Below are positions 61,701 to 64,000 of a DNA stretch of 64,000 bases, piece by piece. A program made the position numbers. This DNA comes from Escherichia coli (lineage in GTDB: Bacteria; Pseudomonadota; Gammaproteobacteria; Enterobacterales; Enterobacteriaceae): the NCBI RefSeq assembly GCF_003334405.1, contig NZ_QOWM01000003.1; one strand, 5' to 3'. The stretch's first letter is position 1. The number at the start of each line of letters is the position of its first letter.

Positions 61701-64000
61701 ACAATATTCGAGCCGGAGTCCGCTATCGTCTTAATGAACAGCATCAGTTTGTTGAGTGCTGATAGCTTTACCTTTAATCAAACGAAAGACGCCGACGAGC
61801 ACGGGATGCAGGCTTTACGACCGCCCGAGCCATCGCCTCACCAATTTCTGCACATGCCGTAAGTCCCTGAACGAAAGGCTGGTCGTGCATCAACCAGGGC
61901 AACGCGCCGAACGCTACGCGCCCACGAATATCTTCGGGTTGCTGTAACGTATAATCTTCGCCAACATCAGGGATTTCATCCCCTGTTTTCTGTAATTGCT
62001 CGCGTAGCCCAGGGAAAGGGATATCTTTCACTTTAAGCGGACGTTGTCCGCGGGCATCAATAAAAACGTCAAACGAGTAGCTGTTGTCTTCCGTTTTCAG
62101 GACGGTGCGCGACTCATTAATTTCCATTTTGTAGTCTTCACCGAGGGCGAGAATATGAATGATTCCCGCTTCACGTAAGGCAAGTAGGCGACGAATAGAC
62201 TCTGAAGGGATTGCCGCATAATTATCGATGAAAACCCGGGCAAGGCCTTTACTGAACCGTTTATGGTCGTGTTCATTCAGATGTGGAACAATTTCCTGTA
62301 CGGCTTCATGCAGGCGCAGAATGACATAACGCCAGGGAACAGTATGTTTTTCTCGTTTATTGCGTTCGACTTCCTGGAGATTTTTTTCTGCCCAGTCAAA
62401 TGGGTCGCGTTGTTTGCGCTCGGCAAACCAGGCTTGAGCAAAGGAATCGACATTCAGGCTCTCTAAGGCTATGCGTTGACTCCAGTCTGGATCAGCAAAC
62501 TTGATTTCCTCTACTATCAATCTAAATACCCGATCCAAAAGGCCCTCTTCGCCTTTTTGAATCTCAGCATTTAATGCCTGATCGGTGACGATGTGTAAGG
62601 GCTCGTAGGGAATAGGGCAATAGAAATCGGCTTCGGGTAAAATACCCGTGCGCGACAACAACGTGATATTTAGCTTTTCACTTGCGTTATCGCGGTGAAA
62701 AACGACGTGTTGTTTATCATCTTCAATGAACGAACCATGCTGAATAGCCACTGCCATTGCCGCATCCAGTCCGCTCAAGGATGTTCCCATAATACCCACG
62801 TTACACGCATCGACCTTTGCTTCCATCAGGCCTGACCACGGGCTGGGAAAATACGTTCGGGTTGCTTCTTCTTCATCAGGCCAGACGTGACCCGTGGCGA
62901 TCACCGCTAAATCAAACGTCTCGCTGGGTAAATCCTGATTTGTAGCGAGCATGACGCCAGCATTTGTAATTTGCAGATCGGTAACCTGGCATGATTCATA
63001 AACAGCCACTGCAAATTTTTGCTGTCGTGCCTGGTCTACTAGTCGTAAAAATTGATCGCGGAAATATTCGCCCAGCAGAATTCGCGGTAAAAACTGACGA
63101 TCGTGCAAGGTTTCTTTTTTAACGCCATAACGCTGGAGATGGCTGTCTTCTTGCTTTTGTAGCCATTCGAGATACGTACAATAAATCGGCGGTATTTCAA
63201 TACTGGCAATATTTGCCAGCATCATTTTTGAGTTTTCCTCATCACTGTATGGCATCCCGACACCGGCCTCGTCAGCCTGCTCGAAGATAGAAATAGAAAG
63301 TGGAGTTTGTTGCTGTAGAAGCGAGAATAAGGTGTAGATCCCCGTAGGCCCGGCACCCACAATAGCAATTTTTTTCATTGTTACTTACCTGTACGCATTC
63401 TTTCGAATTTAGTGTTATCAGATAAGTTTGGTTGAGATTTTTAGAATTTGAGAAATTTCAGACAGGGATGAAAAGGGCGCTAACCGCCCTTGATTAAATT
63501 CTGTCAGGCGAGTTTTGCCTGATTGATTTGACTAAGTGGCTCATTGACATCGAAAACTTTGGCGACAACTTCCTCAACGCCGAGATTTTTCAGTCGGGCA
63601 GTATGTTTTTCCAGATAGGCAAGGGCGCTTTTTTCATCAGTGAAAAGGTAGATCCCACCGGCTTCGTGGTTCTTTTCACTTTCTGTCCATACCTTCCACA
63701 GAAAACCAGGTTCCTGATTAATCGACTCAGCAAGTGGTTTAAGCTGCTCAGCCATTGCGTCGCCAAATGGGCCATTAAAAGCAAAATGAAGTTGTAACAA
63801 AGTTGCCATAGCGATTCTCCTTCTGATAACGCATACGAAGACAGTGTAAATCTTTTAACGTATTGGATACAGAGAAGAAACAGAGGGAAAAAGGAGAAGA
63901 CCAGATTAAGAAAATCTGGTGCGTCCGAGTGGACTCGAACCACCGACCCCCACCATGTCAAGGTGGTGCTCTAACCAACTGAGCTACGGACGCAGGATGG

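Follow-up and report, generated by a model that had tools for sequence, protein, structure and literature searches.

Two genes that lie side by side on the same strand, directly downstream of a tRNA gene, raise the question of whether they are also linked in function or in origin. The genes considered here are ydhR and ydhS, which follow a tRNA-Val gene near the end of a 64,000-nucleotide stretch (the window) of Escherichia coli contig NZ_QOWM01000003.1 (assembly GCF_003334405.1; Table 1). An earlier reading of the sequence alone (the original prediction) had presented the two genes together, as a flavin-binding protein gene and a small ABM-fold protein gene beside the tRNA. The best overall explanation of the locus, which is favored here with somewhat better than even confidence, is that the adjacency of ydhR and ydhS is specific to Escherichia and represents neither a functional module nor a tRNA-borne island. 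The tRNA gene valW, ydhR and ydhS are most likely three adjacent co-directional units with separate transcription, and YdhS is most likely a flavin enzyme that oxygenates a small molecule.

The gene order around ydhS was surveyed at 80 genome loci containing a YdhS orthologue. At only four of these, all from Escherichia (Escherichia sp. E1V33, E. whittamii, E. coli SCPM-O-B-8794 and E. fergusonii), does ydhR directly precede ydhS. Two Citrobacter loci carry ydhR 1-2.8 kb from ydhS, with an opposite-strand MBL-fold gene in between, and the remaining loci have no ydhR near ydhS. At approximately 50 of the 80 loci ydhS is found in unrelated contexts, such as next to a PTS/LamB sugar cluster in Klebsiella oxytoca or amid Bro-N, RelE/MqsA, RhuM and primase genes in Yersinia massiliensis. 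Clustering of the open reading frames (ORFs) around the 80 loci identified no recurrent co-directional partner of ydhS; the recurrent neighbors, encoding a carbonic anhydrase and an MBL-fold hydrolase, are convergent only. Distant YdhS homologues (44-58% identity) lie on contigs of 2-4 kb, where the gene context is uninformative. Homologues of YdhR are encoded by solitary genes in differing contexts in Raoultella, Neisseria, Photobacterium and Citrobacter rodentium.

The order ribE-mdtK-valV-valW-ydhS occurs in Enterobacter, Lelliottia, Huaxiibacter, Silvania, Pseudenterobacter and Klebsiella indica. The distance from the last tRNA to the ydhS start is approximately 120-150 bp at five tRNA-scanned loci and approximately 1.8 kb in K. 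indica. Because this order is shared across genera, the adjacency of valW and ydhS is older than Escherichia. In Escherichia ydhR separates the tRNA genes from ydhS, and a looser arrangement of this kind occurs in Citrobacter; here ydhR is most simply taken as an addition specific to the lineage. Further E. coli additions are ydhQ and the ydhYVWXUT cluster, both absent from E. fergusonii. The two genes can also be separated by deletion: Escherichia sp. MOD1-EC7003 (locus L008, positions 1580-2310) has lost nearly the whole ydhR coding sequence through a clean deletion of approximately 290 bp, and keeps the leader, the terminator hairpin, the ydhS promoter-like element, both flanks and ydhS, which is intact and 95% identical.

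On the minus strand the tRNA gene is followed after 107 bp by ydhR and, after a further 125 bp, by ydhS. A GC-rich hairpin with a T-run, similar to an intrinsic terminator, begins 13 nucleotides past the ydhR stop codon. Its stem is kept and its loop substituted in the cryptic Escherichia clades, and in E. fergusonii this position is occupied by an unrelated hairpin, likewise GC-rich and followed by a T-run. Maintenance of the same function by two different sequences, in E. coli and in E. fergusonii, is what would be expected if termination after ydhR is real. Nearer to ydhS lies a conserved element described as CCACACTTA-type. The motif is present no more than 150 nucleotides upstream of the start codon at 38 of 83 loci, compared with 4.1% of control windows, and it is found in many genera (including Yersinia, Raoultella, Buttiauxella, Citrobacter and Lelliottia) irrespective of the upstream gene. 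The element is similar to the sigma-S -10 consensus, KCTAYRCTTAA, with the closest likeness in Citrobacter (TCTACACTTAT), and is a candidate sigma-S-type promoter. A peak of sigma-S holoenzyme in genomic systematic evolution of ligands by exponential enrichment (SELEX) has been assigned to the spacer between ydhR and ydhS (Shimada 2017). An identification of the element as a RutR box was dropped, the resemblance extending to a half-site only.

Several points weigh against this reading of the spacer. The hairpin is not listed by a consensus terminator scan, and read-through could still yield a bicistronic ydhR-ydhS message. In most genera the candidate -10 element has C, not T, at position -12, and the element could equally be an operator or regulator binding site. 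Whether promoter or operator, it is a cis-regulatory element that belongs to ydhS itself. The two genes are probably carried on separate transcripts: the tRNA-Val operon would end ahead of ydhR, ydhR would be monocistronic and closed by its own hairpin terminator, and ydhS would be driven from its own, probably sigma-S-type, promoter.

On the tRNA side, valW is the promoter-distal member of the valV-valW pair; valV, the second tRNA-Val copy found in every reference genome, lies beyond position 64,000, outside the window. The spacer that follows valW contains a terminator-like site in the consensus scan (fold -10.3 kcal/mol). Termination of valV-valW has been reported to be Rho-dependent, with ydhR not cotranscribed (Mohanty & Kushner 2007; data not shown there), and the C/T-rich, unstructured character of the spacer fits this published mode of termination. 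No integrase was found among the ORFs of the window or in the annotated 18.5 kb around the site. A search of the 64-kb window with the 3' end of the tRNA (last 16-30 nucleotides, with two to three mismatches depending on length) matched only the tRNA itself, and positions 57,000-64,000 contain no relevant flanking repeats. In megablast comparisons the region 61,500-64,000 was matched in 5426 of 5426 complete E. coli genomes, with at least 80% of the query covered in 5410 of them, at 95-100% identity.

These data can be set against two other explanations of the locus. If ydhR and ydhS formed a two-gene operon, the flavoenzyme and the ABM-fold oxygenase might act sequentially on an aromatic or quinone-type compound, like antibiotic tailoring pairs. 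The two genes are indeed co-directional and only 125 bp apart, both products are oxidoreductase-like, and the genes remain direct neighbors in E. coli, E. fergusonii, E. whittamii and the cryptic Escherichia clades. However, a terminator-like hairpin lies directly 3' of ydhR, the sigma-S SELEX peak falls in the spacer, and the conserved ydhS-proximal element occurs independently of ydhR. At least 70 of the 80 loci have ydhS without ydhR, ydhR occurs elsewhere without ydhS, ydhS is intact where ydhR has been naturally deleted, and the substrates of the closest structural relatives of YdhS are amines rather than aromatics. An operon of this kind is thus improbable. Integration of a genomic island at tRNA-Val, of which the two genes would be a remnant, is very improbable, although the locus lies directly 3' of a tRNA gene, its GC content is slightly low (44.8% in ydhR and 47.9% in ydhS, compared with 49.3% in the window), the genes downstream of valW vary between genera, and ydhS shows signs of horizontal spread, including 66%-identical copies in Brucella/Ochrobactrum and the mobile-looking context in Yersinia. 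Against these features stand the lack of an annotated integrase, the lack of flanking repeats and of any second copy of the tRNA 3' end in the window, the presence of the region in all 5426 complete E. coli genomes, and the old appearance of the valW-ydhS adjacency that results from a ribE-mdtK-valVW-ydhS order common to several genera. The reading as a tRNA-borne island is largely refuted.

Accordingly, parts of the original prediction stand and parts do not. Its remark that no integrase or direct repeat is visible is borne out within the window, where the search for a tRNA 3'-end repeat was also negative, and its placement of the region in the probable core genome holds for E. coli. The pairing of ydhR with ydhS that it implied is unsupported, given an adjacency confined to Escherichia, the spacer hairpin, the SELEX peak and the ydhR deletion with ydhS intact; the implied pairing of both genes with the tRNA fares no better, ydhR having been reported as not cotranscribed with valV-valW. 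Absence of co-transcription, which the original prediction had named as evidence that would speak against it, is probably the actual situation, as judged from the hairpin, the SELEX peak, synteny and the natural ydhR deletion.

What, then, does YdhS do? The protein matches PF13454 (NAD_binding_9) at 5e-31 over residues 5-164 only, and NCBIfam PRK09897 with 1117 bits. Single-sequence phmmer searches for PDB relatives of YdhS, and of a distant family member (P0219), returned nothing significant. The family includes 987 representatives at E <= 1e-3 out of 1.84 billion, and 60 diverse members served as input for the family alignment, profile and structural model. An AlphaFold2 model of YdhS (predicted local distance difference test score (pLDDT) 94.3, predicted template modeling score (pTM) 0.92) has as its top Foldseek match in the PDB the enzyme FzmM (8CP5 and 8CP2; E 9e-23, TM score 0.73), followed by the ornithine hydroxylases SidA, KtzI and PvdA. 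FzmM and CreE are nitrosuccinate-forming L-aspartate N-monooxygenases with 17-18% identity to YdhS. The 60-member profile matches flavin-containing monooxygenases (FMOs) at 4e-10 and FzmM at 5e-7, and hhalign aligns YdhS orthologues with FzmM-like proteins at 97.7% probability (E 1.9e-12). The link of YdhS to FMOs and FzmM is thus seen only via family profile and fold searches. PF13454 is also found in FzmM-like proteins, some of which carry the JGI label 'NAD(P)/FAD-binding protein YdhS' and one the label 'L-aspartate N-monooxygenase (nitrosuccinate-forming)'.

The characteristic sequence motifs are conserved. The GxGxxG FAD motif of YdhS, G8-A-G10-P-T-G13, aligns with the corresponding motifs of FMOs and FzmM, and its G8 and G10 are invariant in the 60 members. 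The second dinucleotide motif (residues 195-205, GIMGTSLSGLD), in which G198 is invariant and S200 and D205 are at least 90% conserved, aligns with 'vlGsSySAeD' of FMOs and 'lRGLGLNFFD' of FzmM, and a second Rossmann domain is present in the model. Asn56, invariant in the 60 members, is aligned to Asn62 of FzmM, and Tyr44 to Trp51; according to the FzmM paper, Trp51 is stacked on the flavin and Asn62 lies over C4a. The best profile matches to YdhS are FMOs, namely bacterial and plant enzymes and trimethylamine monooxygenase (7d4k at 4e-10, 6wpu at 2e-9), and the match spans both dinucleotide motifs and the ATG-type motif. Comparison with solved members shows the overall fold similarity of a class B monooxygenase. 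The siderophore N-hydroxylases SidA, PvdA, KtzI, NbtG and DesB, which are class B N-hydroxylating monooxygenases, belong to another Pfam family of the K_oxygenase type. Their substrate domain is much smaller, approximately 350 residues superpose on YdhS, and they are encoded in siderophore clusters, whereas ydhS has no such neighbors.

In mechanistic terms, YdhS would act as a class B flavoprotein monooxygenase of the single-component kind. Its FAD, held by the N-terminal GxGxxG motif, would be reduced by NAD(P)H at the second Rossmann domain, and the reduced flavin would react with O2 to form a C4a-hydroperoxyflavin, stabilized under the conserved Asn56. The small substrate, accommodated in the large helical domain, would then receive one oxygen atom on a nucleophilic heteroatom, most probably the nitrogen of an amine. 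We infer both the oxygenase chemistry and the N-hydroxylation.

The nature of this substrate can be narrowed by comparison with FzmM. As described in the FzmM paper, a helical substrate domain sits between the two dinucleotide domains of that enzyme, a three-domain layout that the model predicts for YdhS as well, with helices at approximately residues 266-403. In FzmM, L-aspartate is bound by Arg13, Arg276, Arg416, Arg577 and Asn413, and sulfate ions in the same arginine-rich site touch Arg266, Arg409, Arg412, Asn413 and Arg416. This cluster is not matched in YdhS for three of its arginines: Arg13 corresponds to Thr12, Arg266 to Asp251 (within the invariant motif PEADF) and Arg276 to a gap. 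The lack of conservation at these positions argues that the substrate is not aspartate, and the charge reversal from Arg266 to Asp251 hints at a non-anionic substrate, perhaps a cationic amine. Furthermore, unlike FzmM, YdhS is encoded without a nitrosuccinate lyase (CreD/FzmL type) or a biosynthetic cluster nearby; its gene is flanked by tRNA-Val, ydhR and ydhT, and is a stand-alone, housekeeping-type gene in Enterobacterales. YdhS is therefore placed among the class B flavoprotein monooxygenases, with the architecture of FzmM, but not among the aspartate hydroxylases.

Two other assignments of YdhS were considered. It might be not an oxygenase at all but an NAD(P)H-dependent reductase or oxidase of the superfamily of flavoproteins with two dinucleotide-binding domains, such as a Bdr/YpdA-like low-molecular-weight thiol disulfide reductase, a quinone reductase or an H2O2-forming NAD(P)H oxidase. 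This is unlikely: FzmM is the best match by a clear margin (477 aligned residues versus approximately 300) and the alignment covers a helical substrate domain that reductases lack, every one of the 60 family members has the catalytic Asn of class B enzymes, in alignment with FzmM Asn62, and the 60-member alignment contains no invariant or at least 90% conserved cysteine. At the other extreme, YdhS could be the orthologue of CreE/FzmM and convert L-aspartate to nitrosuccinate in a cryptic nitrite-forming pathway of the aspartate-nitrosuccinate (ANS) type in E. coli. YdhS has PF13454 and a COG name in common with FzmM-like proteins, and FzmM is its best structural match. However, the low sequence identity, the replacement of Arg13, Arg266 and Arg276, and the absence of a nitrosuccinate-lyase-type gene from the neighborhood make orthology scarcely credible; in some actinomycete homologues an adenylosuccinate-lyase domain (PF10397) is even fused to the enzyme.

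A more specific proposal, which is put forward tentatively, is that YdhS is a core-genome N-oxygenase with stationary-phase or stress expression of the sigma-S type that turns a cationic amine into a metabolite of the N-hydroxy, nitroso or nitro type. Asp251 would point to a substrate resembling a polyamine or a basic amino acid. Some considerations weigh against the main reading of YdhS itself: the published record contains no enzymatic activity for YdhS or YdhR, no conserved co-directional neighbors of ydhS hint at a substrate, and FzmM residues 409-416 and 577 could not be mapped onto YdhS because searches with FzmM residues 2-261 retrieved only truncated or frameshifted homologues. In published work, a ydhS mutant of the Keio collection has reduced susceptibility to killing by the Agrobacterium type VI secretion system (T6SS) and is complemented in trans; YdhS is cleaved by Prc in vitro, though predicted to be cytoplasmic; and deletion of ydhS in K. 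pneumoniae has no lactic-acid tolerance phenotype. If the N-oxygenase proposal is true, the best-studied bacterium contains a previously unknown small-molecule reaction, and uncoupled oxidation of NAD(P)H to H2O2 could explain the lower T6SS sensitivity of ydhS mutants.

YdhS evolves unusually fast for a core gene product. The E. coli protein shares 69% identity with that of E. fergusonii and 87% with that of E. whittamii, versus 94% and 98%, respectively, for the adjoining MdtK. The ratio of nonsynonymous to synonymous substitution rates (dN/dS) relative to E. whittamii is 0.086 for ydhS, 0.054 for ydhR and 0.012 for mdtK, so that ydhS exceeds mdtK approximately sevenfold. Purifying selection acts on ydhS, but less strongly than on its neighbors. 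Across Enterobacterales, YdhS orthologues are about equidistant, at 60-74% identity. Copies that are 65-66% identical occur in Brucella/Ochrobactrum spp. and in a metagenome-assembled genome of Hyphomicrobiales (L059, L062-L065, L067, L076 and L077). Several of these alphaproteobacterial copies lie on contigs of 3-4 kb with near-identical upstream sequence, which suggests recent horizontal transfer or a multi-copy element. In E. coli 5CRE51 (NZ_CP021175.1) ydhS is interrupted by an IS1 transposase gene, and a cluster of 404-residue partial YdhS proteins (P0019, 496 members) is labeled Shigella sonnei, suggesting recurrent inactivation of ydhS in some lineages.

YdhR matches PF08803 in Pfam (4e-42) and NCBIfam PRK11118 (169.9 bits, cut-off 103), and is identical over all 101 residues to PDB entries 2ASY, 1WD6 and 2HIQ (E approximately 1e-64). 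It would be a small, cofactor-free, ABM-like protein forming a dimeric alpha+beta barrel. In this it is like the cofactor-independent monooxygenases of ABM fold, ActVA-Orf6 and YgiN; unlike them, it belongs to a family of its own (PF08803), its match to Pfam ABM is marginal (E 0.14), and its gene does not accompany genes of a polyketide or quinone pathway. In papers that cite Revington et al. 2005, YdhR is described as a putative mono-oxygenase and grouped with ActVA-Orf6 and YgiN. The literature searched contains no report of enzymatic activity for YdhR, and the name 'monooxygenase' derives from fold resemblance only. The protein is made in vivo, since it has been detected on published two-dimensional gels, where it was up 3.4-fold together with WrbA and SodB under uranyl at low pH. 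A 'predicted protein' of the amoeba Naegleria gruberi (P0339) is 77% identical to E. coli YdhR, and reflects either bacterial contamination of the assembly or recent transfer from a bacterium to the eukaryote.

Table 1. Features at the valW-ydhR-ydhS locus (positions within the 64,000-nucleotide window)
Feature	Position	Strand	Basis
tRNA-Val(GAC), valW	63917-63993	minus	ARAGORN; Rfam tRNA, 69.6 bits; tRNA-Val x2 annotated in reference genomes
Spacer 3' of tRNA: weak hairpin overlapping tRNA 3' end (63900-63920) and C/T-rich unstructured tract (63870-63899)	63870-63920	minus	
ydhR, 101 amino acids, PF08803 family	63504-63809	minus	ORF, Pfam, NCBIfam, PDB identity
Intrinsic-terminator-like hairpin, AAGGGCG-GTTAG-CGCCCTT then TTCATCC	63466-63491	minus	Sequence; fold -12.0 kcal/mol
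Conserved ydhS-proximal element, CAACCAAACTTATCTGATAAC	63414-63434	minus	E. coli form of consensus TTTTC-N-ACCACACTTAT
Candidate sigma-S-type -10 region, CAAACT	63425-63430	minus	Putative promoter function
ydhS, 534 amino acids, FAD/NAD(P)H class B monooxygenase-like, FzmM-type three-domain architecture	61774-63378	minus	
ydhT, convergent neighbor, last gene of the ydhYVWXUT cluster	60950-61762	plus	ORF, NCBIfam PRK09946, annotation

The gene identities, domain types and same-strand arrangement given in the original prediction were confirmed by the ORFs, ARAGORN, Pfam and NCBIfam. Both genes have long been catalogued and named, and are annotated in every E. coli genome, and the structure of YdhR is solved. 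The description of both functions as unassigned is correct insofar as the literature searched contains no assigned function for ydhR or ydhS (searches for COG4529, PF13454, b1667 and b1668 found nothing useful), but it understates what is available, as YdhR has three structures and YdhS can be placed near the characterized FzmM. The annotation of an identical strain shows pykF, ynhH, fumD and ydhYVWXUT (the U gene of which is annotated as phsC), then ydhS and ydhR on the opposite strand, followed by valW, valV, ydhQ, mdtK and ribE.

At the tRNA end of the locus, the Rfam model RF02194 ('HPnc0260 bacterial antisense RNA') matches positions 63,793-63,955 of the plus strand at full length with 112 bits (gathering score 59). 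The matched strand is antisense to three segments, namely the 3' half of the tRNA-Val gene, the 5' leader of ydhR and the initial 17 nucleotides of ydhR itself. The 3' third of the model is the reverse complement of the tRNA, and the score is only 60-68 bits where ydhS directly follows the tRNA, so much of it is tRNA-derived; no evidence was found for an E. coli transcript corresponding to the match. Klebsiella indica (locus L043, positions 6000-6238) contains three tandem tRNA-Val(GAC) genes, compared with two at every other locus examined.

At the other end, the stop codons of the convergent genes ydhT and ydhS are separated by 11 bp, and ydhS-ydhT is among the published convergent pairs with overlapping transcripts ('excludons'). 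A RcdA SELEX site has been published inside ydhT. The YdhT protein consists of many short degenerate repeats of the type (S/N)xRI(A/S)xxG, by which it looks like a beta-helix-type repeat protein, and the DNA of ydhT contains a diverged direct repeat (61,238-61,269 and 61,508-61,539).

In summary, the region consists of ordinary, known core genes that look independent of each other, and ydhR and ydhS are better studied separately than as a pair. For YdhS, a concrete hypothesis is gained, that of an N-oxygenase of class B and FzmM type that acts on a substrate other than aspartate, possibly a cationic one, and whose gene has a conserved promoter-like element to itself. Such an N-hydroxylase is not known from E. 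coli K-12. Identification of the YdhS substrate would add a reaction to the metabolic map of E. coli, and might explain the published T6SS phenotype.

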